In this document: positions 569 to 23,292 of the stretch, one piece after another
Layout of the letters: every line of letters starts with the position of its first letter
How positions within the stretch are numbered: the stretch's first letter is position 1
Source: Planctomycetaceae bacterium
GTDB lineage: Bacteria > Planctomycetota > Planctomycetia > Pirellulales > Thermoguttaceae
Assembly: GCA_009783865.1 (NCBI GenBank)
Contig: WRCR01000001.1
Span: forward strand, 1-37,709
Reading direction: 5' to 3'
DNA length: 37,709 nt
Notes under the pieces: model-generated
The model's input: the letters and a program-made list of their open reading frames with translations, nothing else
Database searches by the model: none
Told to the model about the DNA's origin: nothing
Position numbers and translations under genes: made by a program

Positions 569-791
569 TGTATCGTGAATTGAAAATCGTAAAATGTGTT
601 ACGGTTGGCATGATAACAGGTTTGGCGGAATTTGCAATTCCGATGCGGGAAAGATTCGAAGGAGTTATCAATTCCTGCGAAATTTTGCACTTCCGCCAAA
701 GTGGCACTTTTTGCTATTGCCAGCATTTTCAAGTGTGTTATTATCTCCGCTACTGAAGCAGCATACCTCAAGAACCATTGGAAAAGATGCC

Positions 792-1385
792 ATGAACCTT
801 TCGTCGAATACTTTTGAGCATGAATCAACCGAACTACCGGTTTCACTGTTGAAGCCGACTCCGAACAATCCGAGGAAACGCGATAAACGAAGTCTCCGCG
901 AAATTGCAAAGTCAATCAAAAAGTTCGGCTTTGTCCAACCGATTGTCACCGACAAAGAATACAACATTATTATCGGACACGGACGTTTTGCAGCAGCAAA
1001 GCATCTTGGATACAAAACCGTTCCTGTTATCATTGCTAAAGGTCTAACGGAACAGCAACACAAACAATTACAAATTTCTGACAACCGCTTGTCCGAATTG
1101 TCGAGTTGGAACGATAGATTACTTGCCGAGATGCTCGAAGAAATGAATAACACGGCTCCTTTTGAAATACCTGGATATGATGCCAAAGACATCGAAAAAA
1201 TATTGGGAATTTCAGATTATCAACAGGCATTACGTGAATTACCGCCGCTATGCGCCGAACTTCCTGTCTATGAAGAATACCATCTTTTGATCAGTTGCAC
1301 ACGCGAACATTATGACCGATTTGTCGCTTTACGGGATTCACTTAAACATGAAACTTGGTGCGAATTAGAGGAGGCTTCTCGATGA
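792..1385 (+). CDS. ParB/Srx-fold (ParB-like nuclease domain) protein, 197 aa
   Basis: Track ORF 594..1385 trimmed to ATG 792 (MNLSSNTF...). NPRKRDKRSLREIAKSIKKFGFVQPIVTDKEYNIIIGHGRFAAAKHLGYKTVPVII shows the ParB-box GxxRxxA pattern. It resembles the ParB domain found fused to N6/N4 DNA methylases of phages and plasmids. The TGA stop overlaps the next ATG (ATGA at 1382-1385). Confidence 0.75.
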   Translation: MNLSSNTFEHESTELPVSLLKPTPNNPRKRDKRSLREIAKSIKKFGFVQPIVTDKEYNIIIGHGRFAAAKHLGYKTVPVIIAKGLTEQQHKQLQISDNRLSELSSWNDRLLAEMLEEMNNTAPFEIPGYDAKDIEKILGISDYQQALRELPPLCAELPVYEEYHLLISCTREHYDRFVALRDSLKHETWCELEEASR

Positions 1386-1948
1386 CTTTGACAAAAACTG
1401 ACAATGACAATCTATCGAAAAAATTATCTATCCGCTTATTTGCAATAGACCGACTCCAAAAGTCCGAAACGGAACCTATCCGCGTTTTAGATTGTTTTGC
1501 TGGTGATGGATTGCTTTGGCATTACCTGAAGAAAGAGTCAGGGCATCTCATTAAACATGTCGGCATTGACACTTTGCCAAAGCAAGGTGCTCTCTATCTT
1601 GGTGACAATCGTCGGTATCTCCATCGTCTGTCGATTGACAATTACGATTTGATAGACATTGATGCATACGGGGTACCTTACTGCCAAATGAAAATCCTTG
1701 CAGAACACAACTACCGCGGCATTGTGGTAGGAACGTTCATTCAGTGTGTTTACGGCGGTCTTCCGTATGCGATGCTTGAAGACATCGGCTATTCCCGACC
1801 AATGGTCCAAAAAATAACAAAATTATTTTTCAGTAAAGGTTGGAACAAATGTGCGGCATTTCTTCGGCTTCTCGGTTATGAAGAGGTTTATGTTTACCAT
1901 TGTGCCAACAAGCATTATTTCTGTTGCATTCCAACAAATAACGGATAA
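1382..1948 (+). CDS. small class-I SAM-methyltransferase-fold protein (Trm1/RsmD-like or TcmP-like motif pattern), 188 aa
   Basis: ATG 1382 (MTLTKTDND...) is translationally coupled to the ParB-like gene. VLDCFAGDGLLW is a motif I-like D-x-F-x-G-x-G. LIDIDAYGVPY resembles the D-x-D-P-[FY]-G motif of Trm1-type enzymes and, from memory only, of TcmP partner proteins. Family assignment needs an HMM search. Confidence 0.5.
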   Translation: MTLTKTDNDNLSKKLSIRLFAIDRLQKSETEPIRVLDCFAGDGLLWHYLKKESGHLIKHVGIDTLPKQGALYLGDNRRYLHRLSIDNYDLIDIDAYGVPYCQMKILAEHNYRGIVVGTFIQCVYGGLPYAMLEDIGYSRPMVQKITKLFFSKGWNKCAAFLRLLGYEEVYVYHCANKHYFCCIPTNNG

Positions 1949-1995
1949 AATGCTGTCGTGAAAAAAATTGTAATTCACTGCGTTACGGAGTCCTT

Positions 1996-2721
1996 ATGTC
2001 GATAATCTACGCACCGCGCGGCAAAGCATTGGAATACAGCGATTTGGCGGCAAATCTATACACCGGCTGTTCGCACGGGTGCCGATACTGCTACTGTCCA
2101 GCAATTCTACGGATGAAACTCGACGAATGGACAAACGATCCGAAACCGCGACGGGATATTTTGAACCAACTCGACCGCAATGCCGCAAAGATACACGGCG
2201 ACAAACGGGAAATCCTGCTCAGTTTTATGAGCGACCCGTATCACAGTGACGGTGCCGCTATAGTTACCCGCCAAGCATTATTGATTTTAGAACGGCACGG
2301 CTTGCAGGTTCAGGTTCTCACGAAAGGCGGCAAACGGAGTATCGGCGACTTCGACATCTTGGCACGTAACAACTGGAAGTTCGGTTCGACTATCATTTTT
2401 CGTAACGAAAAACTACGTGAAAAATGGGAACCCGGTGCCACTCCGATTGATGAACGAATCGAAACGGTTCGGGAAGCCCATCGGCAAAGAATTTTCACTT
2501 GGGTATCGGTAGAACCGGTTGTCGATGCCGACGAAGCCCTTGCCGTCATGCGGGAACTGCGGGATGTTGTAGACCTCTGGAAGGTTGGCAAACTGAATCA
2601 CGACAAGGAACGCGAAGCCGCTATCGACTGGAAGAAGTTTCTGGACGATACCGAAAAAGTCCTCGCCGGAAAGAAGTTTATCATCAAGAAAGACCTCGAA
2701 AAATTCCGAGATAAGTCGTAA
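1996..2721 (+). CDS. radical SAM protein, 241 aa (small COG1533/SplB-like or DUF5131-like type)
   Basis: LYTGCSHGCRYCYC contains the canonical CxxxCxxC 4Fe-4S/SAM motif near the N-terminus. The downstream landmarks ILLSFMSDPYH, VQVLTKGG and WVSVEPVV follow the order seen in small phage- or repair-type radical SAM enzymes. GGAG at 1987-1990 lies 5 nt before the ATG. Confidence 0.8.
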   Translation: MSIIYAPRGKALEYSDLAANLYTGCSHGCRYCYCPAILRMKLDEWTNDPKPRRDILNQLDRNAAKIHGDKREILLSFMSDPYHSDGAAIVTRQALLILERHGLQVQVLTKGGKRSIGDFDILARNNWKFGSTIIFRNEKLREKWEPGATPIDERIETVREAHRQRIFTWVSVEPVVDADEALAVMRELRDVVDLWKVGKLNHDKEREAAIDWKKFLDDTEKVLAGKKFIIKKDLEKFRDKS

Positions 2722-2761: not shown

Positions 2762-3523
2762 TTAATTTTCAATACTAAATTTCGCAGACCGTTCCAATTT
2801 TATACTGTTGTAATCCATTTCGTCTGCAAAATTAAACTGCCAAAGAGAAAAACAGTCATTTCGCCGTTCAAAGAATAAAGTTTTAACCTGTTTATTTGTA
2901 TGTTGCTGCCACTGCCGGAACGGATAAAACAACTGCCGAATTATTGTATTTGCCGTATACGAATTCTTCGCTTCAACAAGAACAACTTGATTGCGTCCTT
3001 CGTATCCCGCATCGACTTCCGTCTGCACACTTTTTGCGGTCAATTCAAATTTGCCGACACGATATGAAAACTCCGGTGTGTATTTTCGCCCTCGAATTGT
3101 CAAGACAAGCGATTCATCGTCGGCAAAAGTTCGTATCAAACTTGCAGCATAAGCAAAGTCGATGTGCTGCATTTCCGAATCGCCGATATTTGACGTATCA
3201 GGAACGAAATCCAATTTCGAGCGGTAAATTTTGACTTCATTTTCAATCGGCGGAATGTCAATATATCCTTCGCCCTTGACGATAACAAACCGTCCGTTAT
3301 GCACAGGCAAGATAAATAAACCGTTCTCAATAAACACGTCCGGTCTATCTTCCCGGCTGTCTTGCTTGCATAACACTCTAACTTCACGCTCGCCGGTTGT
3401 TGTAAAATGGGCGGTTGCTTTCTTGATTTGTTCAGCCGACAATTCAAACGGTTCGGCATCAAAGTTGTGTTTATGAATTTTATACTTATCAAAAATTGCT
3501 TTCCACGCCGTACTTGATGCCAT
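2762..3523 (-). CDS. candidate Type II restriction endonuclease (PD-(D/E)xK-like), 253 aa
   Basis: It starts 4 nt downstream of the methylase stop on the same strand. TEVDAGYEGRNQVVLVEAKN fits a D...E-x-K nuclease core. I recognise no named family by eye, so the call relies mainly on operon position behind the MTase. Confidence 0.55.
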   Translation of the reverse strand: MASSTAWKAIFDKYKIHKHNFDAEPFELSAEQIKKATAHFTTTGEREVRVLCKQDSREDRPDVFIENGLFILPVHNGRFVIVKGEGYIDIPPIENEVKIYRSKLDFVPDTSNIGDSEMQHIDFAYAASLIRTFADDESLVLTIRGRKYTPEFSYRVGKFELTAKSVQTEVDAGYEGRNQVVLVEAKNSYTANTIIRQLFYPFRQWQQHTNKQVKTLFFERRNDCFSLWQFNFADEMDYNSIKLERSAKFSIEN

Positions 3524-3527
3524 AGTA

Positions 3528-4385
3528 TTATCCTATAAGTTTTCGTTGGCTTTGCGCTTGTTCAATGCGGCTTATCGTTAATTCTAAAAATTCTTTATCA
3601 ATATCAATTCCGATATATTTCCGCTGTCCGATAATGCTTGCTGCCGCGCCGGTTGTGCCTCCGCCGTTAAAAGGGTCGAGAATAACTGAACCGGCATTCG
3701 TAGATGCTGTTATCACACGAATTAACAAAGTTAACGGCTTTTGCGTGGGATGTTTGCCGAATATCTTTTCTGACTTTGGGGCAGAATTGATACCCCAGAC
3801 CGTCCGCATTTGTTTGCCGGCGTTTTTGAATTTATCGCTTTGGTCGTTAGTACTTTTCATAGCGTCGTAATTGAAAATGTATTTTGACCTCTTGTCTTTC
3901 ACCGCCCAGATAAGTGTTTCGTGGCTATGTGCAAACGTCTTGCAAGCAAGATTCGGGGCGGCATTGGGTTTGTACCATGTTATATCGTTGAGTATATGAA
4001 ATCCTAACTTCTGCAATAGATAACCGCACTGAAAAATGTTATGGCTTGTTCCGCTAATCCAAATCGTTCCGCTCGGTTTGAGAATGCGTCGGCATTCACT
4101 AATCCATCTTTCGTGAAATTCGACATCTTGTTCGAAACCGTTGCTTTTGTCCCACTTACCTTTGTTGACCTTGACCATTTTTCCCGCTTGACAGGTAATT
4201 CCGTCATTCGACAAATGATACGGCGGGTCGGCAAAAATCATATCAACAAAACTATCGGGCAATGTCTGCATTACGGCAAGACAGTCTCCGTGATACAAAC
4301 ATATGCTGTCTGTATCATAAAAAACGTCTAACGGTATCGGCGACGATTTTAGTGTTTTCATAATAACTTGTCCAATATCTTTCAT
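3528..4385 (-). CDS. Type II beta-class DNA methyltransferase (N6-adenine likely; N4-cytosine not excluded), 285 aa
   Basis: DMIFADPPYHLSN (motif IV, DPPY) precedes VILDPFNGGGTTG (motif I, FxGxG), which is the beta permutation. GKHPTQKP and WYKPNAAPN are typical of the N6_N4_Mtase family (DpnA/MboIB/HinfI/CcrM-like, from memory). An alternative start exists at 4361 (MKTLK). Confidence 0.85.
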   Translation of the reverse strand: MKDIGQVIMKTLKSSPIPLDVFYDTDSICLYHGDCLAVMQTLPDSFVDMIFADPPYHLSNDGITCQAGKMVKVNKGKWDKSNGFEQDVEFHERWISECRRILKPSGTIWISGTSHNIFQCGYLLQKLGFHILNDITWYKPNAAPNLACKTFAHSHETLIWAVKDKRSKYIFNYDAMKSTNDQSDKFKNAGKQMRTVWGINSAPKSEKIFGKHPTQKPLTLLIRVITASTNAGSVILDPFNGGGTTGAAASIIGQRKYIGIDIDKEFLELTISRIEQAQSQRKLIG

Positions 4386-4493
4386 TATGCGCTATTTTAT
4401 GTAAATAATCAAGCGCCTCTTGCATTCCCATTTTGCTTCGGTTAAAATCATCTCGGTATTTTCGAAAACGTCCCTCTAACTCTCAATACTAAT

Positions 4494-7138: not shown

Positions 7139-10100
7139 TTACCACCTCACCGTCAGCGTTGTGGAAAGTACGTTGTTTATGACGCAGCGTTCAAAAACTT
7201 CGCAGTCGTAATCGAGGCGGAACTTGAACCAGTTTGTTTCCTGCACTGCGAACCCGACACCGACAAGTCCGTTGGCGTGTCCCCGCGGACCGCTGTTGGC
7301 GGTAAATTTTACTTCCGGCACGCTGCCAAACGCAGTTGTTACCCTTGCCCCGTTGTTTCCCAATTCGTGAATGTAGTACAGACGTGCTTCCGGTGTCCAT
7401 GAAAGACCGCCGACTCTTGCACCAAAGGTTCTGCTCATCTTGAATCCGACGGGAACACGCATCGAGGAGAAATGCGCGCCGTCAACACGCAGGTTTGCGT
7501 ATCCGCCGTCCTTTTCGTTTACACTTGGGCTGCTGAGATACATGTAATGTAGTCCCGCGCTGGGAGTTAATATAAGTGAACCCAAGTTCTGGGCACTTCC
7601 TACTTCGACACCTGCCGAGAACATATCGTCACTGTAATAACTTTTCGCAGAGCCGGCAAAGGCACCGTTATTTATACAGATACCGCGGTTAATGTCATAC
7701 GAGTTTTTCGAGTATCCCGCGTAGGAGTCGACAAAGTAACCGCCTTTGCACATACTATTGTGGAGTATAATTCTCCATGCATCGATTTCTGAAGTGGAAT
7801 TCAGGGTTTTGAAGTTCTGATTAGCGTTGTCATACCCAAAGGATATTCCGATTAAGTTTCCCGGCATTATCATTTGGTCGATTCCGATGGCAGTTCCTAT
7901 CGTTGATAAACTGTATCCGCTGTATTGTTTGATGCTGCTGCGTCCCTGCCAATCGCCGGTGACGGTAGCCCAAATATTACACTGTCTTGACCGGCTGCCG
8001 GGGTAAACGAAGTCCCGGCAAGAGGGCAGCAGTTTCAGGAAACTGCGATGCAGTTGTGCGGCGGCTTCCTTGTTCGACGCATATACCTCGCCGTGCAGTT
8101 GCGCAAAAGCATCCGCTAACATCTTCGGGTCTCCGCTCAAGGAATCAAGAACATCGTAGAGATTGCCGAGCCGGCCGCTCTGACCGAGCGAATCAATTAC
8201 ATCCACTGCTTTTGCTGCGTTAACGGCATTTGGCGAACCATAACCGTCGAGAATCTCCGATAGACCTCTCCACTTGAGCCAGTAGCCGTAGTCGCCGTTG
8301 TAGTTGCCGATAAACTGACCGAAGCGGTTGTTTCCGACAAGCGTGAACAGCGGCTGCGGTTTCAACTGTGTTGCGCCGGCATCAATAACTTGATAGTACT
8401 TTCCGAATTCGCCGGTGCCTTCTACTACCAATTCAGCACCCTTTTCGATGGTGACTTTTCCGCCAGCCGCAACGAGGAGGTCGCCTTGTCCGCTGTTGTT
8501 GACATCATATTGATATGTCGAACCGGCTTCAAAGAAGACGTCGCCTCCGACGACAAATGTGCCGAAAGGATTGACTTTGTCGCCGGGCGAGAACGCCGCA
8601 CCTTTTTCGACTTTCATTTTTCCGGCAACAGAACCGTGACCGCCGAGTGTTCCCTCTGCAACCCTTGTCAAGCCGGTGTACGTGTTATTAGCATTGAGAT
8701 ACAGCGTACCGTCTCCGTACTTGGTCAGCGCAGTGCCGTCCCACAGAGTGCCGCTCTTATCGATTGCCTTGTTGTACGTATTGTTCGGGGCGTTGTTACT
8801 AAGCACCGCACCGAGTGTGAAACCATCTTTGAAGGTATCCTTTTTAACGGTGAAGTCGCCATGCGCAGTATCCTTCTGCTTGCTGTCCCAAGTTAGTTGG
8901 GTTTCAATAACGACATCTTTGTTATTGTTTTCAAGTACAGCGGCGGCATTAAGGAAGTCCAGTTGCGACTGCTTGTTGATGGTAACGTTCAGACGTTTAT
9001 TGACATCATCGATGATAATTCCGTTTTCAGTTGCAATAGCCCATTGACGGTTCATCGGTACGTAATACGGACTATCCTGATACGGGTCGTAGCCGCTGAT
9101 AGCAAGGTCCACTGCGCCGCCGGCATTAAACTTAACGGTGTCGGCTTTTAGAGCCGCGTCGTCCCGCTTGTCTCTGCCTGCGACATCCAATCCCAAAACG
9201 CCGTCTTTGGTTACGAGAACCTCGCCTGACACACGAATCTGTCCGCCGGAGAACGCATAAGCATCTTCAACAGTCATTTTTGCAACGTCAACGCCGCCGT
9301 CTTGAACTACAACGCCCTTTGCGGCATTGGGGTTGTTGCTGAAAGTAACGGTATCGCCGGTCATGAAGAATGTGTTTCCGATACCGCCGTGAAGCCAATT
9401 CCTGTTTGCCGTATCAGTGTTCCATTCATCAACAGAACCCGAACCGTTCCACGTGATGTTTTCTCCGCCGCCGAGAGCAGTGTACCATAAAGCATTGTTA
9501 TCATAGTAACCGCCGCCGCGAACATTTTTATCAACTAAGTCGTAGATATTTCCCGGGTCTGTCATTATGCCGTTGGAACTGATGAGCAGTTGCGGAACAT
9601 TACTTACGAATCCGGTGTTGTCAATGTGTATCACGGTATTCGTGAAAGAAACATTGCCGATGGCGACAATGCGGTCGTTTGACAACAGGTTGAGGTCAAC
9701 ATGCGCACCGATAAACGCTGCCGTACCAAGTACATTCAATGTACCGGTCGGGTCAACGATGCCTCCGAAGATTGCGTTCTTCAATTCTGCGCCGTTATCG
9801 GAAGTCAATGTCGTACCAGTACCTTGAATGAAATTACCGCCGAGTTTCGCAGTACTCTCTAAATGGACAATGCCGTTGGCTTGCGTAAAGGTGCCGCCGA
9901 AGTTTGACGAGTTGCCTGTCAATATCAATTTACCGACACCGATTTGTGCAGCATTTGCGCCTGCGCCGCCCGTGATTTCGCCGTTATATGTAATGGTATT
10001 GGAACGATTAAACGCGGCTAAGGCACCGTTTTCAATTCTAATGTCGCCCGCAACGGCACCGGTCCTTCTGCCGTCGCCGATTTGCAGCGTTCCCTCTTTG

Positions 10101-13100
10101 ACCCAAGTTAAACCGGTGTAGGTGTTGTCGGCTGTTAAAGTCAGGATACCGGCACCCATTTTGGTCAGCGTAGTGCCGTTCCAGTCAGCCCGCCTGTTAG
10201 CCCAAACGTCGGGACGGCTTCCGGGAGTAATATCCTCAAGCACCATGCCGAGCGTGAACGAGTTGTCAACCGTGAAGTCGCCGTGCGCCGGTTTGCCTGT
10301 CTTCGTGCTGTACCATGAGAGGAAAGTTCCAACCACGACTTGTTTGCCGTTATCGGTAACTTGGACTCCGTTTTCGTCAACGAGTTTCGCATATACCGTA
10401 AGATAATCAACGCCGTTAGAACCGTCAATCGTAACATTCGGATTGAAGCCCGTGATGATACCGTTTGCCGCTTCAATGAGCGTGCTGGAAACCTCCGGTT
10501 CGTTATACACCGGCGGTTCGTATTTTTCAAAGCCGTAAACATTCAGCGTTGCGTTGCCAAGGTTGATGTTTCCGTCTTCGGCAAAAATTGCAACGGGACT
10601 GTCTTCCGTAAAAGTAAAGTGGAAGGTGTAGCCCGCGCCGGCAACGTTCATCGCTAAATCCGGTGTGCCGGTCGCTTTTTCGTTACTGACTACTACGCCA
10701 TTCGGGTCAACGTAAACGTTTTTCTCTGCGGCAGTAAGTACATTGCCGCCGGTTTTCCTGTCGTTGTCGCCGAAATAGACGGCATCGCCATCCATGAAGG
10801 CGTAAATTACGATGGAGCCGTTGTCGCCGAGTTTGCCGTACCAGTTAGCGTGTTCATCGCTGGAAACCCACCAGCGTTTTGGACCATCGCCGTCATCTTT
10901 CGGGTCAGCACCCGTCCAAACAACTTCGGTGTTTCCGCCGCCGTTTTCCGCTACGAGATATAATTCCTTGTCGATGTTATCGGTGAAGAGACCGTACATC
11001 ATTTCGATAGTCCGTGACCGCACCGGAATATACGGGGTGTCATCGTTGCCTAAATACAACTGCCCCATGTTATTGAACGTGTTGTCTTTGTCAGCCGAGG
11101 CAAGGAAAATCTTGTCTCCGCTAAATACGTCAGCAGGGTCGAATCTAACGTTGCTTCTGTCCACCGTTATTGTTCCGGCGGAGAGTTCCAGGAACGGCAC
11201 GGTGACGTTTCTATCGCTCAAGTCAAACGACCACATACTGCCTTGACCGAAGTTGATGCTTCCCGCCGCAGTAATTTGCGTGTTGTGTTTGCTAATCAAA
11301 AGTGTTGACTCAGCGAAATTGATGTTGCCTAAAGCACCGGTATCCGGGTTCACCTGTGCGTCAATGATGTGTCCGCCCAAGCCCAAATCGAAAGTATAAC
11401 GCTGGTTAGGATTGGCAATGTTGTCAACTAGCATATTACCGACCGTGACCGGTTCTGCGATTCTAACGTTTCTGCTCTTGACGATTCTGTCGCCGGCATC
11501 TTCAATGAAAAGAACGGTGTCCCTGTCCATGAACGTGTTGACGATGAGTTCATCGACATATCCCGTCCAGTTCGGCGTAGGATTCGGGGCATGAATACCT
11601 TCGACTTTGTCCCAAGTATTTACATTGCCGAGTGTTCCGCCTACCCAAGTCAGGATAGCCGAAGCGTCATCCTTTGCCTGCACGAGTTTCAACAGGTTGT
11701 CGCCGCCGTCGTCAATACTCTTGTACGAAAGACCGGTCATCATACCGACAGAAACGGTTCTGCGTACGGGAGCCGCCACTTGTACATAACCGCCGAAGCC
11801 GTCGGATTCCCAAAGTGTACCGGGATTCACAATGTTGATGTTTCCGGCATCGCAAGTAATTTCGGCAAGTACGTATGGGGACGGCAGCAGATTCGCCAGC
11901 GTATTGCCCAGATAGACATCGCTGAAGAACTCTACGCCTGCCGCTCCGTTAAATACGACAATCGGGTTGTCGCCGCCGCCCGCGCCTTTGGCAAGAAGAT
12001 TATCGAAATAAACCGCTCCGCCTGCGCCAAGGAGAACTTTGTCGTCTGCCGAAATCGTTACCGGCGAGTTGTAATCAACATGAATTCCCGCTGTACCGAA
12101 ATCAATTCTGCCGACTGCTCCCGTTTTGGCATCCGCTTTTGCTTCAAGGATAGTACCGCCGCCCGCTTGTGTGAAGTCAAACACATAACCGCTGCCGTCT
12201 ACCGTCATATCGCCGACCCGCACCGGAATGGTAAAGTAAATGTCGGCTTTGTTAGTGACAATTTGTGAAACGCCGTTCTCGTCTATGTAAGTATCGCTGA
12301 ACAGCACGGTATCGCCGTTCAAGAAAGTATAAACGCCGCGTCCGCCGACTTTGCCGAACCAATTCGGTGTTCCCGCTAAGGGCGGGTCGCCCGGCACTAC
12401 ACTATCCCAAAGCAGCGGATTGCCGATATCTTTTCCTGTCCATTGAAGAGGATTATCCGGACCGGCATTAGCCATGGAATCCCACATCGAAAGCACTACC
12501 ATTGAGTCAGGACCCGCCTCGCCGTCCATGAGTCCAAGTCCGAAGATTTCGCTGTTTCCGGTCACGCCATCTATAAACCCGCGTTCTGATGAATCCCGCT
12601 GTTTTACTCCGGCAATATACAGGTCGCCGGTTGGGATACCGAATTTGCCCTTATCCACTTCCATAAGAATAAGGTAGTCCCCTCGATTGAAGTCGAAGTT
12701 TGGGTCGGTCGGTTTGTTGGCGTAGAAATCACTTCCGACAACGATTATTTCGCCATCACCAGTGGATACTTTCAGGTCAAGGAACGGACCATCGAAATAT
12801 GGATGCACATCTCCCTGCGGAGTTGCGTTTTTGGTTATTTCCTCGAAGTTTAACACGCTGCCGACCGCGAAGTCAAACGTTTTAGCAGTGATTTGCGTTA
12901 CGGCTTCTATGGAAAAATCTTTGGCAACGATAGTCGCCTTGTTAGCGGCATAAACACTTGCAACATTGTTTGTGAAGACGAAATCCAAGGTCCCGGCATC
13001 GATATGGCGGCTTCCGTCTACACCGTCATCAGCGGCAATAAATCTGCCGTCGTTTCCGAGATTCAAGATAGCACCGACTGCACTATTTTCCGACCCAAGA

Positions 13101-16100
13101 GCAAGTGTACCTTCCGTGAAAGTGAAATTTACGATACCGGGTGTGAGAATGGGCGTAGGCGCAGCCGCATTGCCGAACTTACTTGTTCCAACAAGCCGCC
13201 ATGTTCCTGCGCCGGTTTTGGAAAGTTCCACTTCGGTATTAGCATCGCTGAACATACCGCCGCGCTGTGTCAGGGTGCGTTCATCTGCAACATCGACATT
13301 AAATTGGTTGCCCGCTCCTGTGAAGAAGACGCTGTCATCGGCGTTTTTGTTTCCGGCAGTGTTCACGGTAACACCTATAACGGTATCAACATCCACAACA
13401 TTGACGTTAATAAGTGTACCGGCACTGTAAATGGCACCGCCGGCATCTCCGGGCAGGTCACCGGCTTTCATAGCGCGGTTGCCTTTGAAATTCGTGTCGG
13501 TTAGCGTCAGTTCTCCGCCTTGAGTGAAGATAGCACCGCCGCGGTCAGCATAGTTGCTCTTGGCATGTCCGCCGAGTGTATCACCGAAGTCGCCGCCGGT
13601 TATATCCACTATTCCATTATCGTTGTAAATAGCACCGCCTTGAGAAGCGATATTGCTGGTGAATAGGTTTCTGCCGTTCTCATCGGTAAAAATCAGTATA
13701 CCCTTGTCGTTGTAGACAGCACCGCCGAGACCGTCGGTTTCGCTGACGATGTTTGCGTCAAACAAAACGTGGTCGAAGGTCATGTCTCCGGCACCCCGGG
13801 CAGCGGTATTAAATACAGCACCGCCTTTTTTGCCGATAGTACCGACGTTGTTGCTAATAAAATCGGCATCCGCCATTATAACATTACCGGCATTCCAGAT
13901 GGCACCGCCTTCTGCCGCTTGGTTTTCTACAAACTCAATGTCTGTCAGGGTAAGCAGCCCGACTATGTCGTCGTTGTAGATAGCACCGCCGAATCCGCCT
14001 ACTCCGGGAGCGATAAGTGCGCGGTTGCTCTCGAACACCATTCCCTTGTGTTCTCTGCCGTATTGGTCTATCGTCCGAAAACCGGCACTATCGATAAGCA
14101 GGGCAGCAGTGTCAACATTGTTGGGGTTGGTATGATAGATAGCACCGCCGTGGTCAGCAGTATTCGATGTGAAAAGACCGCCGTAGATATTGACTATACC
14201 GCCTTCATTATAAACGGCACCGCCCTTTCCGCTGTTGGGCACTGTTCTGCCGTCAATAGTCGATGTTGCAAGGTTATGTGTGAATCTGACATTCGCAAGA
14301 TTAATTGTACCGGTTTCCGTGTTGTAAAGTGCACCGCCGAAAGCAGCCAGGTTGCCTAAGCCCGTGCCCCCGCCGAAAACACCGCCGTAAAGATAAGGGT
14401 TGCGCACCGGTATTGGGTTTCCGTCCTCGTCCTTCGGAGGTTCTCCTCCAATGACATTGCCGTCTTCGTCGTATATTAATATCGCATTATTCCAAAATGA
14501 CAGTACTCCATTGTCACTATTGTAAATGGCACCGCCCTTTTCGGCGATATTGTTTGTGAACGTACTAAAACCCGTGCTAAAAAGCTTACCAGCGAAGTCA
14601 CTAGTCGTCGCCATGAAGGTCATCGGCTGCTCGTCGTTGAATATGGCACCGCCGAGTCCGCCGCCGACATATCTATACGCTATTATGTGAGTACCACTTG
14701 ACAGCACGGTATCATTAAGTTGCACAATTTGGTCGCGGTTCCGGTTGCTAAGCACAGTTCCGGGAACCTCGATGACGTTGGGACCATCCGTAAGCGTTCT
14801 GGGACCGGGAAGCACAGTTCCGGCTGGAAGCACAGTTCCGGCTGGCAGCACATTGCCGGCAGGGAACCAGGTGTCAACAAGCAGCGGCGGTCCGCCGGGT
14901 ATTTGGGTTCCGGCAGGAAGCGTCATACCAAGCCCTGTAAGGTAGCCGGTAGAACCGTATCTTGCCGTTCCGGGAATTGTTAACGGGTCAGTCAGCGTTA
15001 TCGCTTCAGCAAGTGCGGTATTACTTGCAAACTCAATGCTAAAACGGGTGTCAGGGGATAAGCCCGAACCGGAAAACCAGTTGGAAAACGTTTGGCTGCC
15101 CGAAACTGTGTGGTCACTGTACACCATTCCAGCCGTGTTATTGCGGAAGCGGGTAGTTCCTACGACTTCCATGTTTCCGCCGCCGGTTGTGTAGATAGCG
15201 CCGCCGTGTTTACCGGCGACATTGCCTTCAAATAAAGCAGCGGCAACATCCGCCTGCGCTATGGCATAACCGTATCGATACGAACCCAGTCCCGTACTAA
15301 CCCAGTCCTGTATAAAAATCTCTGCAAGTGCTTCTTTGGAAATGTAAATGTCCAAGGGCGTTTTTTCCGGGTCAGGCCAAGGAATAATATTTGTATTGCC
15401 GACTTGCCCTGCTTTTCCCGTTGCTTGTGCTGCCGCTGCAATGGGAGAAGTGGTGATGAACCGAAGTGTTCCCTCGTTGTTGTAAATCGCACCGCCGCTG
15501 TCAGTTGATTTGTTGTCCGTAAAGACGCTGCCGTATGCCGTTGATTCGGCATAAGAGCGGGAACCATATTCGAAGGAGCGTAAACTGCTGGGGTCGCCAA
15601 ACTGCGGGTAAATGTACGGGTACCCTATGTCGCCGTCAGGAGGCATTTGCGAGGGGTCATAACCATAAGCCGTCCCCAAGTTGAAATAGAAATTATCGTT
15701 AGAAAAAGTAGCACCACTGGTATTATTAGTTGGCGTAGGGTTAGCCCAAGAGTAGACATTAAGATTGCTGTCGGCATCAGCGGTAATGGCGGCAGTGAAG
15801 GTCAGCGTTCCTTGTTCGTTGTAAACGGCACCGCCTCTGTCGGCTCTGTTGTCCTCAAATTCACTGCCGATTGCTTTGGAAATTGCTAGTGCTGTGGCAT
15901 TTGCGTTGGCAAAAGCAATACCGGTGCCGCTTCTGTTTGCAGTCGGGTTGGCATTGGCAATAGCCGATGCGGAATCAGCAACAGCATTAAAGGTCATGTT
16001 CCCGCCGTTAAGGTAAATTGCGCCGCCCTGACCGTTATAATTACCGGTACCGTTGTCAACACCTGCGGCGTTTCCTTTGAAAATACCGGCATTGGCGATT

Positions 16101-17662
16101 GCTTCTGCAAGCGAGTCGGCAAGCGCGAAAGATGTACCGATACTGCCGGTACCGTGCGTAGACGTGGAGGTAGCAGTGGCAACAGACACGGCACCTTGGG
16201 CATCCGCCGAAAATACCATTGAACTGCTTTCACCTGAAATGTTTTTATCTAAGTAGATAGCACCGCCGGCAGTTTCTGCCTTATTGCCTACAAAAACACC
16301 CCCTTTGGCATGTGCGATAGTGTTCGTATTCACCTCTGATACCGGACGAGTTTGATTCGCGCTGGATTCAGCGATAGCGGTAGCGGTTGCCGAGGCAGGA
16401 CTAGCCGTTGCCAGCAACTCAAGCGTTTCGTTGGTGTAAATCGCGCCGCCGACTTGCTTTGCAGTGTTGTTCAGAAAATAACCGGCAGTAGCATCCGTTT
16501 TATGAGGTGCTCCAGCACGGGAACGCTGCATGTTACCCGTAGTATTGGAGATAATCGTGAGAGTATTATTGGCAGCGTTAGGAGTGGAAAGAACGATAAA
16601 ATTCAATGTTCCATCGTTGTTGTAAATCGCACCGCCGGAACCGGTGAAGGCAACATTATTCCGAAAAATGTTAATTGAAGTGTTGATTCCGCTTCTGCTG
16701 TAAATAATCGGCGGACTCCACTGAGGGCTCCTGCTTGACTGAAAATGTCCGCTGCTTGTTTGAATACCGTTAATAGCGGAAGCGTCAATCGTTATTATTC
16801 CGGTGTTGTTGTAAATTGCTCCTCCGTCTTTATTGGCAATATTACCCTCGAACAGGTTGCTTGCGGGATTTCTTCCCGGGAAAAAATTTGCCGGCGGCAT
16901 ACCATTTTTATTAGGCGGGAAACGATTTGAGTCCGAAGACCAATCGTTTTTGAGAGCATCGATATTTACTTTTCCGCCGTAGGTATAGATAGCCCCGCCG
17001 AATTGCTGTGCCGCGTTTCCGGTAAAATCAACCAACTGGATATTGACATTGCCTCTATCGTTGTATAAGGCACCGCCGCCGCCCGCTCCTTCAACGCTAA
17101 GCGAGGAGTTGTTGTCGAAGAAGAGAACAGAGAGATTTATTGTTGCGCGCCCGTTGAAAATCGCGCCGCCGCGCTGTTCGGTTACATTGTTCGTGAACCC
17201 AAAAGTTCCGGTGCCTGTGGTGGTCCAACTTTCCCACGAAGGAGGAGCACCGGAAAAGGTGAACAAGTTACTGACACCGATAACCGAAATCGCACCGCCG
17301 TCCCGCTCTTCGTAGGCATTATCGAAAACGAGTTTATTAGTAATACCGGCATCGAGATCGGAAACGACATAGATACCGCCCTTGTTGTACAACGCTCCTA
17401 ATTCGAGATGTGCTTTGCCGCCGAATGCATCTTGGTACACGAAGTCGCCGTTAATCACGCCTTCTTTGATAACGAGCCCAGACTCGCTGGTATAACCGGG
17501 AACGGACGTGCTGACATCGTCAGGGGTTATAGTTAGCGGCGTTTGCGCATAAGCGTTATGTCCCATCGCGGGAAACATACCGAGTATGATAGCCAGTACA
17601 CCGGCGGCGAATTTTGCTTTTGTAGATGACTTCTTCCTTGATGAAGTAATGCTCTTTTTCAT
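7139..17662 (-). CDS. giant type Va autotransporter adhesin with polymorphic-membrane-protein (Pmp) repeats, 3507 aa
   Basis: Signal peptide MKKSITSSRKKSSTKAKFAAGVLAIILGMFPAMGHNAYAQ. About two dozen GGA[ILV][YFW] motifs by my count (GGAIYNN, GGAIYTYG, GGAVYNE and others), often followed by F-x-x-N as in Pmp repeats. Autotransporter-associated beta-strand repeats are present (LTKMGAGILTLTADNTYTGLTWVKEGTLQIG; LTKYGDGTLYLNANNTYTGLTRVAEGTL). The C-terminal ~280 aa (about 7142-7980) is a beta-barrel-like domain of alternating hydrophobic residues ending ...TLTVRW. Confidence 0.85.
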   Translation of the reverse strand: MKKSITSSRKKSSTKAKFAAGVLAIILGMFPAMGHNAYAQTPLTITPDDVSTSVPGYTSESGLVIKEGVINGDFVYQDAFGGKAHLELGALYNKGGIYVVSDLDAGITNKLVFDNAYEERDGGAISVIGVSNLFTFSGAPPSWESWTTTGTGTFGFTNNVTEQRGGAIFNGRATINLSVLFFDNNSSLSVEGAGGGGALYNDRGNVNIQLVDFTGNAAQQFGGAIYTYGGKVNIDALKNDWSSDSNRFPPNKNGMPPANFFPGRNPASNLFEGNIANKDGGAIYNNTGIITIDASAINGIQTSSGHFQSSRSPQWSPPIIYSRSGINTSINIFRNNVAFTGSGGAIYNNDGTLNFIVLSTPNAANNTLTIISNTTGNMQRSRAGAPHKTDATAGYFLNNTAKQVGGAIYTNETLELLATASPASATATAIAESSANQTRPVSEVNTNTIAHAKGGVFVGNKAETAGGAIYLDKNISGESSSMVFSADAQGAVSVATATSTSTHGTGSIGTSFALADSLAEAIANAGIFKGNAAGVDNGTGNYNGQGGAIYLNGGNMTFNAVADSASAIANANPTANRSGTGIAFANANATALAISKAIGSEFEDNRADRGGAVYNEQGTLTFTAAITADADSNLNVYSWANPTPTNNTSGATFSNDNFYFNLGTAYGYDPSQMPPDGDIGYPYIYPQFGDPSSLRSFEYGSRSYAESTAYGSVFTDNKSTDSGGAIYNNEGTLRFITTSPIAAAAQATGKAGQVGNTNIIPWPDPEKTPLDIYISKEALAEIFIQDWVSTGLGSYRYGYAIAQADVAAALFEGNVAGKHGGAIYTTGGGNMEVVGTTRFRNNTAGMVYSDHTVSGSQTFSNWFSGSGLSPDTRFSIEFASNTALAEAITLTDPLTIPGTARYGSTGYLTGLGMTLPAGTQIPGGPPLLVDTWFPAGNVLPAGTVLPAGTVLPGPRTLTDGPNVIEVPGTVLSNRNRDQIVQLNDTVLSSGTHIIAYRYVGGGLGGAIFNDEQPMTFMATTSDFAGKLFSTGFSTFTNNIAEKGGAIYNSDNGVLSFWNNAILIYDEDGNVIGGEPPKDEDGNPIPVRNPYLYGGVFGGGTGLGNLAAFGGALYNTETGTINLANVRFTHNLATSTIDGRTVPNSGKGGAVYNEGGIVNIYGGLFTSNTADHGGAIYHTNPNNVDTAALLIDSAGFRTIDQYGREHKGMVFESNRALIAPGVGGFGGAIYNDDIVGLLTLTDIEFVENQAAEGGAIWNAGNVIMADADFISNNVGTIGKKGGAVFNTAARGAGDMTFDHVLFDANIVSETDGLGGAVYNDKGILIFTDENGRNLFTSNIASQGGAIYNDNGIVDITGGDFGDTLGGHAKSNYADRGGAIFTQGGELTLTDTNFKGNRAMKAGDLPGDAGGAIYSAGTLINVNVVDVDTVIGVTVNTAGNKNADDSVFFTGAGNQFNVDVADERTLTQRGGMFSDANTEVELSKTGAGTWRLVGTSKFGNAAAPTPILTPGIVNFTFTEGTLALGSENSAVGAILNLGNDGRFIAADDGVDGSRHIDAGTLDFVFTNNVASVYAANKATIVAKDFSIEAVTQITAKTFDFAVGSVLNFEEITKNATPQGDVHPYFDGPFLDLKVSTGDGEIIVVGSDFYANKPTDPNFDFNRGDYLILMEVDKGKFGIPTGDLYIAGVKQRDSSERGFIDGVTGNSEIFGLGLMDGEAGPDSMVVLSMWDSMANAGPDNPLQWTGKDIGNPLLWDSVVPGDPPLAGTPNWFGKVGGRGVYTFLNGDTVLFSDTYIDENGVSQIVTNKADIYFTIPVRVGDMTVDGSGYVFDFTQAGGGTILEAKADAKTGAVGRIDFGTAGIHVDYNSPVTISADDKVLLGAGGAVYFDNLLAKGAGGGDNPIVVFNGAAGVEFFSDVYLGNTLANLLPSPYVLAEITCDAGNINIVNPGTLWESDGFGGYVQVAAPVRRTVSVGMMTGLSYKSIDDGGDNLLKLVQAKDDASAILTWVGGTLGNVNTWDKVEGIHAPNPTPNWTGYVDELIVNTFMDRDTVLFIEDAGDRIVKSRNVRIAEPVTVGNMLVDNIANPNQRYTFDLGLGGHIIDAQVNPDTGALGNINFAESTLLISKHNTQITAAGSINFGQGSMWSFDLSDRNVTVPFLELSAGTITVDRSNVRFDPADVFSGDKIFLASADKDNTFNNMGQLYLGNDDTPYIPVRSRTIEMMYGLFTDNIDKELYLVAENGGGNTEVVWTGADPKDDGDGPKRWWVSSDEHANWYGKLGDNGSIVIYAFMDGDAVYFGDNDRKTGGNVLTAAEKNVYVDPNGVVVSNEKATGTPDLAMNVAGAGYTFHFTFTEDSPVAIFAEDGNINLGNATLNVYGFEKYEPPVYNEPEVSSTLIEAANGIITGFNPNVTIDGSNGVDYLTVYAKLVDENGVQVTDNGKQVVVGTFLSWYSTKTGKPAHGDFTVDNSFTLGMVLEDITPGSRPDVWANRRADWNGTTLTKMGAGILTLTADNTYTGLTWVKEGTLQIGDGRRTGAVAGDIRIENGALAAFNRSNTITYNGEITGGAGANAAQIGVGKLILTGNSSNFGGTFTQANGIVHLESTAKLGGNFIQGTGTTLTSDNGAELKNAIFGGIVDPTGTLNVLGTAAFIGAHVDLNLLSNDRIVAIGNVSFTNTVIHIDNTGFVSNVPQLLISSNGIMTDPGNIYDLVDKNVRGGGYYDNNALWYTALGGGENITWNGSGSVDEWNTDTANRNWLHGGIGNTFFMTGDTVTFSNNPNAAKGVVVQDGGVDVAKMTVEDAYAFSGGQIRVSGEVLVTKDGVLGLDVAGRDKRDDAALKADTVKFNAGGAVDLAISGYDPYQDSPYYVPMNRQWAIATENGIIIDDVNKRLNVTINKQSQLDFLNAAAVLENNNKDVVIETQLTWDSKQKDTAHGDFTVKKDTFKDGFTLGAVLSNNAPNNTYNKAIDKSGTLWDGTALTKYGDGTLYLNANNTYTGLTRVAEGTLGGHGSVAGKMKVEKGAAFSPGDKVNPFGTFVVGGDVFFEAGSTYQYDVNNSGQGDLLVAAGGKVTIEKGAELVVEGTGEFGKYYQVIDAGATQLKPQPLFTLVGNNRFGQFIGNYNGDYGYWLKWRGLSEILDGYGSPNAVNAAKAVDVIDSLGQSGRLGNLYDVLDSLSGDPKMLADAFAQLHGEVYASNKEAAAQLHRSFLKLLPSCRDFVYPGSRSRQCNIWATVTGDWQGRSSIKQYSGYSLSTIGTAIGIDQMIMPGNLIGISFGYDNANQNFKTLNSTSEIDAWRIILHNSMCKGGYFVDSYAGYSKNSYDINRGICINNGAFAGSAKSYYSDDMFSAGVEVGSAQNLGSLILTPSAGLHYMYLSSPSVNEKDGGYANLRVDGAHFSSMRVPVGFKMSRTFGARVGGLSWTPEARLYYIHELGNNGARVTTAFGSVPEVKFTANSGPRGHANGLVGVGFAVQETNWFKFRLDYDCEVFERCVINNVLSTTLTVRW
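14808..14861 (-). repeat. 3 x 18-nt in-frame tandem repeat inside the autotransporter
   Basis: On the + strand, ggaagcacagttccggct occurs twice perfectly (14808-14825, 14826-14843), followed by the variant ggcagcacattgccggca (14844-14861). On the - strand this encodes PAGNVL-PAGTVL-PAGTVL. Confidence 0.85.
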
Positions 17663-18063: not shown

Positions 18064-21000
18064 GTGACGAAGATTTATACGAATGTTCCATCCATGATAG
18101 CGCGTGCGCAACTGCACCAGAACATGGCGACGCTGCAGACCTCGCTGCAGCGGTTAAGCACTGGATTGCGTATTAACAGCGGTAAAGATGACCCCGCCGG
18201 CTTAATCGCCAGCGAAGTTCTGCGTTCCGACATCACCGGCATCAAAATGGCAATCAAGAATACTGAACGCGCCAATATGATGATTGCCACGGCGGACTCC
18301 GCCCTGAACGAGGTAACAAATCTGCTCAACGACATTCGCGGTCTCATCACCGAAGCCGCAAACACCGGCGCAATGAGTGCCGAGATGATAGCCGCCAACC
18401 AGTTGCAGGTTGACGCTTCTCTCGATGCCATCGACAGAATTGCCGCTATGACAACGTTCATGGGGCAAAAACTCCTCGACGGCTCACTGGACTTCGATAA
18501 AACCGGCGTGAACAGAAACGACTTGCGGGATTTATCCGTTCATCAGGTTACCTTCGGTGCCGATAAAAGTCCGATTGACGTTACCATTAACATTCAACAA
18601 CCCGCCAGTAAGGCGGAGTTGTATTACAGGAATCCCGCTATTGCCGAAGAAATGGTTCTGCAATGGGGCGGAAATTACGGCTACTGGCAGGAATCGTTTC
18701 AACGGGGCGCAACCGTTGCGGAAATTGCCCGGGTTGTCAACGCCACTTCCAATTCCACCGGTGTTATTGCCGAAGTCGGTTCAGACGCAATGTACGGCAT
18801 GCTCTACGTGAGCGGATTGGGTCCCGACAACGACATGATAATTCAAGCCGGTCAGCCCGGTGTTAATGCCGGCAACATTGAAATCAAGTATGTGGCGGGT
18901 TCGTCCAAAGGCGTTCAAGTCAAATACGAAGAAGGAATCAGCGCGGGTTCACCGGGCAAAATCACCGTCTATCTTCAGACGGAAGAATACAAAAAGTCAA
19001 CTGCCGATGCGGTTGATAACTCGTGGATTAGAGACCCGGTCACCGGTAAGCCGGTCTCACCGCTGCATGATAACAGCGCGCTGCGGTTTGAAGCGAACAT
19101 TCCCGGCTCGCAGTACAACAATGCCAATATTCATTATGTTGATGCCCAAAGAACCGACGCAAGTTTCGCAGACCCGAACAAAAACCCGGCCGGTTCAGCG
19201 AATTATCCTTACGCAAAGTATAATGATAATGCAACCAGTTCCGTTTCGCTTTTCGGCGATGTAAACGGATTGGGAGGAAGCATCGGTGACCTAACCAGCA
19301 GTATTATTGCCGGCAGCGGCGACTATTTTTCGATTCAATCGCGTGAAGGAAGTTCTGCGTATAATAATGTCGAAATAGAGTTTGTGAAAAAAGCAGCCGG
19401 TTCAACGGAACTGAACGGACGCAAAGCGTCCGCCGTTTATACTGAAGAAAAAGACATATACGGTAATGTTAAAGAGAATGGTAAAAAATTAACTATCTAC
19501 TTTGATGATACCGGTACGGCAACACTGCAAGATGTACAAGACGCATTGCGGATAGAACGGCACGAAAAAGACGGAGGAATGGTAACCGGTGCTTTCGAGT
19601 TGAAATCATCTGTTCCTGCTTCGAGTATTGTTCTTAATGGGGCAGCGGCTGTTGATACCGTTGCTGCAAGCGGCAACACCCACAACAGCGGCGGTGAAGC
19701 AGGAACACTGTTTATCTATCTGCCGCCGCCGACAGGTCCCGATGGTATTTCGAGATTTCCTGCCGGACATCCGATGGCAGGACAGCCTATCACAGCGAAT
19801 GATATTGCTGCTCTCTTCGACCTGGACAATAATGCTTCAAAGGGCAGTGAACGTGCTGCCGGTTTGTTCACCGTTACTAATACCGTGGACAACGACGGAA
19901 CGGGCAGTATCTATTTATATGATAATATCCCCGGCAATGTGAAGGCAGTGACCGCTTTCACGAAAGCATTTAAAGGCGGTGTCACCGGCGGCGATGTTAT
20001 AACAACTGCGGCGGAACTTATCACCGTGTTAAACAATTCGGCGTATTGGGGAACGATGATGTGTCCCGAAATGATTGCCGAACTCGCCGTTGAAAATGCC
20101 GACGGCAAGTATTACGACTTGATACCGGACAAGCCCGTTGTTATGGCGCGGCTTGCCCCGAACAATAACGGACTACAAGCCGTCAAGGTTTTTGAAGAAG
20201 TTGCTTATTACGGCAATCCAAACGAAGGTACCGGTTTGCAATTCCTTGGCGAAAAGGACTCGCCGAGCATTCGATTCGTTGCTGAACCGGGCAACAGCCA
20301 ACTCTGGATAGACCGGACAACTGTACCGGCATCCGAAGGATTGTCGCAAGCCGTTTTAACAGCGCAGGAAGGCGGCGCAAGTTTGACAATAACCGCTGTC
20401 AAAAAAGGCGGCGATTACGACGACGTTCAATTTGTCTTCAAACGGATTAACGAAGATGTACTGGCAGTAATCTCACCTGACCGCGCAGACGGCTGGGTGG
20501 AATATGACCCCGGCGTGTCTCAAGCGGAAGCGCACGCCGTCTTTCGGGATGCCACATCGTCAACACCGGTTGCGAACACGGGATTTTACATCAAAGCAAC
20601 TGAACGCGGCGACATGTATAATAACGTTGCCATTCAGATGCGGCTCGATGACACTATGGCGGACATCGAGGACGGAATTCAGGACGGCATCGTTGTTAAG
20701 TTTGATTCCAAGACCAACAGTTTGCAGATTGCGATAGACAGCACAAAAGTTGGAAGCATAACTGCGAATGATGTAATAGCAGCGATTAACAATGCCAAAC
20801 TAGGTTTTACTGCGGAACTTTCTTTCGCAGAAGATATTAACAACACCGGACTCGGAACATTCGACACCATCGGTTTGTCAACCGGTCGGCTGACTGAAAT
20901 CGCCAACACCGGAACGACCGGCGGACACAAAGGCGGAACCGTTACCGTCTGGCTCGCTGACGAGATTGACGGTGTTCCATATATCCCGCCGACTCAAGAT

Positions 21001-23061: not shown

Positions 23062-23292
23062 TGCTATTCTCCAAGTTGCGAAATTAAAACAACAGCGGAT
23101 ATTCTAACAGAGACAAAACGGAAATGCAAGAGGAGAAATTTTTTGTGAAATTTTTCGTTTTTGCGATTTCCCTCTTGTAATTTTTCCGAAGATAAAGGAC
23201 AATGCTCGTGTTGTACGGTAGTTTATCGTTTATTTTTTCCTAAAACCGCCGCTTATAACGGCTGGGTTAAACTTTTTGTTAGGAGTTTTCAA

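Follow-up and report, generated by a model that had tools for sequence, protein, structure and literature searches.

Phages encode fusions of a ParB_N domain with an N6_N4_Mtase methyltransferase domain (phrog_498, PDLC03229), and such ParB-methylase fusions are enriched in prophages according to a survey of ParB-fold proteins (preprint, doi 10.1101/2025.10.10.680097). Proteins of the TcmP family (TIGR04474) are paired with DUF5131 proteins (PF07505), small and radical-SAM-like (SAM, S-adenosylmethionine), and this pair constitutes the PADLOC candidates PDC-M30 and PDC-M41. Spore photoproduct lyase (SPL; SplB, PF20903, structure 4fhc) is a radical SAM enzyme that acts on DNA. In the wybutosine pathway of tRNA, the class I N-methyltransferase Trm5 makes m1G, and the radical SAM enzyme TYW1 then uses this m1G, abstracting hydrogen from the new methyl group. 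Here we analyze three adjacent genes, g1, g2 and g3, which resemble parts of all these systems. They lie at 792-2721 of a 37,709-nucleotide stretch of planctomycete contig WRCR01000001.1 (the whole stretch is called the window below). We tentatively read the trio as a phage-derived, three-component DNA base-modification module that was captured in a small mobile island of the chromosome, and we hold this reading with somewhat less than even confidence.

All three genes are on the plus strand. g1 (792-1385; ATG at 792 to TGA at 1385, 197 aa) encodes a stand-alone ParB N-terminal protein of the ParB/Srx fold. g2 (1382-1948; ATG at 1382 to TAA at 1948, 188 aa) encodes a predicted minimal class I SAM-methyltransferase-fold protein without a curated family, and g3 (1996-2721; ATG at 1996 to TAA at 2721, 241 aa) a putative SPL/DUF5131-like radical SAM enzyme. 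The start of g2 and the stop of g1 overlap in an ATGA at 1382-1385 (+), an arrangement of translational coupling, and g1/g2 overlaps of 1-20 nt recur in the gene calls for relatives. The g2-g3 spacing is 47 nt, with a GGAG Shine-Dalgarno-like site at 1987-1990 (+), 5 nt before the g3 start. A preliminary description of this stretch, made from its letters only, had given the same coordinates, overlap, gap and GGAG site, and all are present. An alternative, longer open reading frame (ORF) for g1 starts at 594; since the called homologues measure 184-197 aa, 792 is the likely start.

We collected loci by pattern scans of GTDB genomes, which gave 24, and of IMG/VR, which gave 151 (80 of these were kept), and ran iterative hidden Markov model (HMM) searches with g1, g2 and g3 over all ORFs of the collected loci. 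A ParB gene directly upstream of g2, usually overlapping it, together with a g3 homologue within 2.5 kb was found in 106 of 116 g2 loci. The same three genes being adjacent so often, their grouping is far beyond chance. The preliminary description had treated them as one cassette, and their neighborhood is indeed conserved across genomes. The exceptions were seven loci with ParB only and three with g3 only. Four of the seven carry a true DUF5131 protein (Pfam 6e-74, PDC-M30B 5e-82) in the place of g3, which we count in favor of the modification reading; in another, g3 lies at a greater distance downstream, and yet another is truncated where its contig ends. Counted over dereplicated loci, the DUF5131 replacement accounts for 4 of 78, and the usual partner, g3, is not a DUF5131 member. 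Across the 78 dereplicated groups, g3 was co-directional in 52 and convergent in 20, with a median gap of a few tens of bases. That the adjacency holds in both orientations supports the modification reading.

The g1 protein matches Pfam ParB_N (PF02195) above threshold (56.2 bits, 3.6e-15; cut-off 26.3), and its best PHROG match is to the phage ParB proteins of phrog_620 (6e-44). Further matches are to the N-terminal part of phrog_498, annotated as 'DNA methyltransferase' (1.4e-38), and to positions 12-141 of the 436 in the PADLOC MTase_II model PDLC03229 (3e-22). Judged by these profile matches, the ParB N-terminal domain of g1 is of the type that phages fuse to DNA methylases, as the preliminary description had proposed. 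The trio thus shares with the phage fusions a ParB part coupled to a SAM-methyltransferase fold, a true ParB-g2 fusion (P0098) exists, and both are enriched in phages and prophages. They differ in that the methylase part of the trio belongs neither to PF01555 nor to any curated methyltransferase family; the PF01555 domain is matched by neither g1 nor g2, only by the neighboring gene at 3528-4385. They also differ in that the trio is split into two translationally coupled genes and has a near-obligate radical SAM partner, which is absent from orthodox ParB-methylases. Conserved across 66 g1 homologues are an NPR box, G62, R65 and an H-[IL]-L-[IV]-S motif in a small conserved C-terminal domain (H-L-L-I-S in the window copy). 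Box II of g1 reads GHGR; the canonical GERR patch is not conserved in the 66 homologues except for G62 and R65. As a canonical partition ParB, g1 found no match to HTH_ParB and aligned to TIGR00180 only at positions 2-104 of 186, and there is no ParA-sized gene within the island. In five phage loci, the trio has right beside it another ParB of about 290 aa, a canonical one with the GERR box and HTH_ParB (L015, 5645-6526, -; L041, 2696-3559, -; L073, 7337-8203, -; L085, 8481-9356, -; L045, 6594-7475, +).

The g2 protein has no match in Pfam, NCBIfam or PHROGs, the best Pfam methyltransferase being Methyltransf_31 at E 0.18, and its profile recovered nothing significant among PDB sequences. Its AlphaFold2 model (predicted local distance difference test [pLDDT] 81, predicted template-modeling score [pTM] 0.82) exhibits a class I methyltransferase fold, Rossmann-like with a C-terminal beta-hairpin. 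Searching the PDB with this model by Foldseek, we obtained probability 1.0 and E-values of 3e-6 to 1e-4 for many methyltransferases. The lowest E-value (3e-6) belongs to Coq5, and the highest template-modeling (TM) scores to the tRNA m2,2G methyltransferase Trm1 (3axs, 0.56) and the DNA adenine methylase M.BseCI (0.53). The same fold search of the BFVD viral structures returned generic methyltransferases only. g2 carries DCFAGDG at residues 37-43 and DIDAYG at 92-97. In an alignment of 21 homologues, T6, D7, D37-C-F-A-G41, G43, D63, G74-D75-N76 and D92-x-D94-A-Y-G-V-P99 are invariant; by inspection, we assigned the motif I glycine loop, the acidic residue after beta-2 and the motif IV catalytic loop. 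The model therefore places g2 in the class I SAM-methyltransferase fold, with SAM binding and methyl transfer predicted, and the SAM-binding fold of the preliminary description, which had been read from the two motifs, is borne out. All four SAM and catalytic motifs being invariant supports the modification reading. The family is large. A word-indexed search recovered only 37 g2 homologues. With a full profile search, we obtained 1117 representative clusters (defined at 50% identity) for a cut-off of E<=1e-3, or 197 for E<=1e-30, and nearly all members measure 170-200 aa. Besides the ParB-like domain fused to g2 in P0098, an HNH domain is fused N-terminally to g2 in P0049 and P0099, and these fusions tie g2 physically to DNA-acting domains. 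In planctomycete contigs, g2 was also found split into fragments of 62, 117 or 120 aa beside an intact ParB and g3 (L119, 6621-6974; L120, 835-1435; L121, 1110-1710), which suggests that g2 decays in some chromosomal copies.

The likeness to Trm1 raises a question of whether the trio modifies RNA. In that case g2 would be a Trm1/RsmD-like RNA methyltransferase and g3 a TYW1-like radical SAM partner, together acting on tRNA or rRNA. Trm1 is among the best fold matches, and the D-x-D-A-Y-G of g2 resembles the Trm1 catalytic loop D-x-D-P-F-G; three homologues give weak matches to the TRM Pfam model exactly there. The Trm5/TYW1 pair offers a precedent, though for the trio it is a mechanistic analogy only. 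Its substrate is tRNA, and apart from the superfamily folds it shows no detectable homology to the trio. The obligate pairing with ParB and the ParB and HNH fusions point instead to DNA, and g3 resembles SPL, not TYW1. We give RNA modification only a slim chance.

The g3 protein matches Radical_SAM (PF04055) above threshold (42 bits, 1.5e-10; cut-off 29.5), in agreement with the CxxxCxxC core noticed in the preliminary description. Its cluster motif is C25-x3-C29-x2-C32, and these three cysteines as well as Tyr31 and Tyr33 are invariant in 37 sequences; Cys34 also lies in the motif. The match to DUF5131 (PF07505) is borderline, falling below the cut-off for g3 itself (24.6 bits, 2.1e-5; cut-off 28.9), while precomputed tables assign PF07505 to many homologues. 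Further matches are to phrog_13321 (8e-18) and, weakly, to the NCBIfam families PA0069, rSAM_mob_pairB and Rv2578c, which are uncharacterized and SPL-like. No NCBIfam equivalog model approaches its cut-off, and we therefore reject a housekeeping radical SAM enzyme, which the preliminary description had named as a case that would refute it. The AlphaFold2 model of g3 has pLDDT 94, and among PDB structures its fold is matched best by that of spore photoproduct lyase (4fhc; E 1.4e-6, TMq 0.64). With the g3 profile, SPL was the sole radical SAM enzyme recovered from the PDB, at a non-significant E of 0.12; the single g3 sequence recovered nothing there, so that SPL is reached only by profile and fold searches. 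g3 and SPL have in common the motif TGCxxxCxYCY, including both catalytic tyrosines, with Y31 and Y33 aligning to the HYCY segment of SPL, and SPL and DUF5131 fall in one RadicalSAM.org megacluster. SPL acts on DNA, and g3 probably does too; that the closest structure is a DNA-acting enzyme supports the modification reading. Unlike SplB, g3 is about 100 aa shorter, does not match the SPL Pfam model PF20903, and has ParB and methyltransferase-like partners, of which SPL has none. The hydrogen-donor Cys140 of SPL (G. thermodenitrificans numbering) aligns to Phe77/Met78 of g3, in a weak alignment (E 0.12), and the chemistry of g3 is therefore not readable from SPL.

These likenesses bring in DNA repair as an explanation. 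g3 would reverse a lesion, e.g. a UV spore-photoproduct-type thymine adduct, by SPL-like chemistry, while g1 and g2 would bind the DNA and flip the base. The SPL match and the conserved tyrosine pair favor this, and so does the company kept by the planctomycete copies. In a Thermoguttaceae metagenome-assembled genome (MAG) and in related contigs, transposases and one or two genuine radical SAM genes of the SPL family border the trio, the latter matching PF20903 at 1e-30 to 1e-33. A gene of the DUF523/2-thiouracil-desulfurase family overlaps the g3 3' end or sits just upstream in several planctomycete loci (L118, 7734-8201; L119, 7734-8192; L127, 5494-5901), and was not seen in phage loci; HhH-GPD genes occur as well. 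Sequence conservation across the family is also much higher in g3 than in g1 or g2, most of the 802 g3 homologues found being 54-70% identical, compared with 30-40% for g2, and g3 can stand alone. Two g3 homologues (P0187 and P0191, 391 and 394 aa), 87-88% identical to the window g3, carry a C-terminal DUF488 fusion that would also suit repair; their contigs are just 1.4-1.8 kb long, and this is a candidate fusion that may be a gene-calling artefact. Against repair stand the Phe/Met at the Cys140 position in that weak alignment and the absent SPL Pfam match. The invariant SAM-binding methyltransferase site of g2 is hard to explain by lesion recognition alone, and genes that lie at the packaging end of a phage genome are ill-placed for mending incoming DNA. 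We consider repair unlikely.

The phage genomes provide the context of most copies. The family is mainly viral, with 151 IMG/VR matches compared with 24 in genomes. Clustering the neighboring proteins and scanning their representatives against PHROGs, we find that the small terminase (TerS), the large terminase (TerL) and the portal gene recur downstream of the trio, while its upstream neighbors vary between loci. A recognized large terminase lies within 6.5 kb in 43 of the 56 informative loci, i.e. dereplicated loci with at least 4.5 kb of downstream sequence. The TerL neighbors belong to four different families (phrog_2, 9, 15 and 979). MAG labels of the contigs include Planctomycetota, Bacteroidota, Clostridia, Akkermansia, Spirochaetes, Cloacimonadota, Dehalococcoidia, Gracilibacteria, Bradyrhizobium, Methanolobus and Thermoplasmatota. 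Among 50,697 GenBank phage records, one, Dulem virus 36 from a lemur faecal sample, carries the trio, annotated there as ParB, hypothetical protein and PA0069-family radical SAM protein. Among cultured strains, the only copy we encountered is in a prophage of Bradyrhizobium lablabi SZCCT0422 (L035). The preliminary description had leaned toward a defense module and had set against it simple prophage cargo, always embedded among phage structural or replication genes; with terminase and portal genes downstream in 43 of 56 loci, the family lies largely in the latter setting, and the emphasis on defense does not survive. In one phage contig (L130), a 360-aa gene of the adenylosuccinate synthase family (2948-4030) lies directly upstream of the ParB-g2-g3 module and terminase; it possibly encodes a PurZ-like enzyme of the kind that belongs to 2-aminoadenine genomes.

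The fixed order of trio, TerS, TerL and portal could mean that the trio is a packaging accessory, its ParB or HNH component and partners helping the terminase to recognize or cut phage DNA in the manner of the HNH proteins of HK97-like phages. That HNH takes the place of ParB as an N-terminal g2 fusion in some members fits such a role. However, at least four unrelated terminase families accompany the trio, and it is under purifying selection in terminase-free chromosomes, including the window copy. To our knowledge, SAM-binding folds and radical SAM enzymes have no part in packaging. A packaging function thus appears very unlikely. The same position, upstream of TerS, TerL and portal and with at least four unrelated terminase families, fits an action on replicated DNA before it is encapsidated.

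We therefore return to DNA base modification. DNA is the probable substrate because of the ParB and HNH partners and fusions, the methylase-fused type of the ParB domain and the SPL-like g3. g1 would be a ParB-fold nucleotide- and DNA-binding adaptor, made in a fixed ratio to g2 through the ATGA overlap, and would bring g2 onto double-stranded DNA. g2 would bind SAM through D37-x-F-A-G-x-G43, D63 and G74-D75-N76. A flipped base would enter its Trm1-like D92-x-D94-A-Y96-G pocket, where an exocyclic amine would be methylated. The [4Fe-4S] cluster of g3, held by Cys25, Cys29 and Cys32, would cleave SAM to a 5'-deoxyadenosyl radical, and this radical would carry out an SPL-type hydrogen abstraction on a DNA base, maybe at the methyl group just added, in the way that TYW1 follows Trm5. 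The predicted product is a hypermodified base. In phages, the modification would occur just before packaging and would shield the genome from host nucleases. The more specific proposal of a hypermodification not described so far, in which an N-methyl group placed by ParB-loaded, Trm1-like g2 is converted by the SPL/DUF5131-type g3 into a new base or cross-link, is possible but doubtful in our estimate.

Several points weigh against base modification. The modified base and the enzyme activities are predictions from sequences and models. g2 stays below the thresholds of all methyltransferase HMMs (best E 0.18) and resembles known methyltransferases with TM-scores of only 0.45-0.56, and it is broken in some genomes. 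g3, which appears to lack the hydrogen-donor cysteine of SPL in the weak alignment (E 0.12), can persist alone, in degraded prophages or between housekeeping genes, and the planctomycete copies accompany the repair-type genes described above (SPL-family radical SAM, DUF523/TudS-like, HhH-GPD). The terminase-side position may mark only a hotspot of accessory genes. Ordinary N6/N4 methylases are also present in several of the phage loci, and the trio is therefore not simply the methylase of the phage.

The window copy itself is chromosomal, within a low-GC island of about 3.9 kb that contains no phage genes. Together with a convergent Type II restriction-modification (R-M) pair, the trio makes up a five-gene stretch at 41-44% GC between flanks of about 50%; within the trio, g1 and g2 have 41-44% and g3 about 50%. 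Read by eye, the island is flanked by an isopropylmalate-synthase-like gene and an aldo/keto reductase gene. At its boundaries we looked for a tRNA, an integrase and a convincing att-type repeat and found none. The rest of the window is without tRNA, and its ORF sizes hint at no phage genes, the ORFs past 8 kb having been listed only and not scanned against family libraries. The closest relatives of the window copy (g2 57-86% identical) do not adjoin terminases either. Downstream of the trio, a 1-Mb contig encodes a DUF523/2-thiouracil-desulfurase-like protein, another radical SAM protein and one with an AEP-TOTE domain. Another planctomycete contig has a broken g2 and then an AHH toxin with Imm11, and three other contigs hold the bare trio between a cation-efflux gene and a transposase-like helix-turn-helix gene. 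Comparing the window copy with its nearest relative, L131, we find unrelated upstream flanks and ratios of nonsynonymous to synonymous substitution (dN/dS) of 0.07 for g1 and 0.05 for g2, values that are approximate as dS (1.7-1.9) is near saturation. By these sequence comparisons, the window copy is under purifying selection, and the unrelated flanks together with the low dN/dS indicate that the module is mobile and under selection. Its maintenance by selection also supports the modification reading.

The R-M pair consists of a Type II restriction endonuclease (REase; DUF6996 + DUF6997; 2762-3523, -; PADLOC REase_II 6.7e-37), which is outside the conserved module, and its partner, a CcrM-like N6/N4 DNA methyltransferase (3528-4385, -; N6_N4_Mtase 1.3e-60, PADLOC MTase_II 1.3e-93; CcrM model 1.3e-74, under that model's cut-off). 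The pair is real, as the preliminary description had stated; its proposed link to the trio is not upheld. The window REase has no homologue in 130 other loci, and we therefore reject a functional link and take the adjacency as incidental.

This neighborhood bears on whether the trio is an anti-phage or inter-phage defense system, which would mark or attack DNA, with or alongside the adjacent R-M pair. The shared low-GC island speaks for this, as do the chromosomal relatives among transposases, an AHH toxin with Imm11, the AEP-TOTE conflict-system domain and an SLFN/AlbA_2 protein. Prophages often bear defense genes, and PADLOC lists the analogous pair of TcmP and DUF5131 as a defense candidate (PDC-M30/M41), found beside a probable Hna gene on plasmid pSymA of Sinorhizobium meliloti (PMC12445080). 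However, viral contigs hold the majority of the trio copies, next to terminase and portal genes, the REase neighbor is unique to the window, and no conserved effector (nuclease, toxin, NAD- or membrane-targeting activity) accompanies the trio. Scanning g1-g3 with PADLOC, we obtained no component HMM match for Dnd, Ssp, Dpd, BREX, DISARM or other validated defense systems. The only matches were to MTase_II, through the ParB part, and to PDC-M models, with g3 at just 20-22 bits on the B models. The preliminary description was thus right that no described system matches. We likewise found no description of the trio in the literature on DUF5131/TcmP, ParB-radical SAM or related mobile-pair families, and no curated family for it. 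A defense role is, in our view, quite unlikely. The preliminary description had suggested DNA hypermodification or an immunity step; its nucleic-acid modification half survives, and host immunity is left as the weaker alternative.

The preliminary description had further drawn an analogy to the TcmP-DUF5131 pair, and this holds in part. In both systems, a protein with D-x-F-A-G-x-G and D-P/A-F/Y-G motifs is paired with a small three-cysteine radical-SAM-like protein (the TcmP motifs were read by eye in the pSymA TcmP sequences), and DUF5131 replaces g3 in the four loci described above. g2 is not TcmP, however. It gave no match to TIGR04474 (cut-off 53 bits) at E<=1, where the S. meliloti pSymA TcmP controls scored 170 and 216 bits, and hhalign gave a probability of 0.6-4.7%. 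g2 measures 188 aa compared with 308-415 aa for TcmP, and neither a ParB component nor adjacency to terminase genes belongs to TcmP as described. With the genes from pSymA as controls, we recognized the TcmP + DUF5131 pair as PDC-M30 and PDC-M41. g2 did not match the A models (M30A, M41A), and the 20-22 bits of g3 on the B models compare with 316-333 for a true member. The pSymA locus (L125; NC_003037.1, locus coordinates 19221-24882) has a DUF5131 gene and two TcmP genes beside an 845-aa ORF, which is probably Hna (SMa2245); the PLSDB record carries no annotation for this stretch.

If the more specific proposal, conversion by g3 of an N-methyl group placed by g2, is true, more than 1000 phage lineages infecting bacteria and archaea would modify their DNA by a radical-SAM route that is new, and the DUF5131/TcmP class would gain a first function. 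The trio unites a ParB adaptor with a SAM methyltransferase fold and radical chemistry of the SPL type, three activities known to act on DNA, at a fixed packaging-side place. With more than 1100 g2 clusters lacking a Pfam, NCBIfam or PHROG model, it represents a large area of phage biology still to be explored. Its product could reveal new DNA modification or repair chemistry, explain the restriction resistance of environmental phages and give the first functional handle on the PADLOC-listed DUF5131/TcmP defense candidates, and the trio could supply new DNA-labeling enzymes. For annotation, a trio copy beside an R-M pair should not be called a defense system by guilt of association.

Some further features of the window were noted. 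A promoter-like site at 717-744 (+), TTGCCA with a 16-nt spacer and TG-TATTAT, lies 48 nt upstream of g1 and agrees with 10 of 12 consensus positions; it is a consensus match only, and neither promoter nor terminator scans of the island gave counts above shuffled expectation. A 26-nt imperfect direct repeat (2753-2778 and 4467-4492, 77% identical, the copies ending in CTCAATACTAA or TTCAATACTAA) frames the R-M gene pair (2762-4385) exactly; it could mark the pair as a separately inserted cassette, or be due to chance. Further along, a 3507-aa ORF at 7139-17662 (-) is, by its translation, rich in GGAIY(N/T)-type repeats, and its C-terminal region resembles an autotransporter barrel, like that of polymorphic outer membrane proteins.

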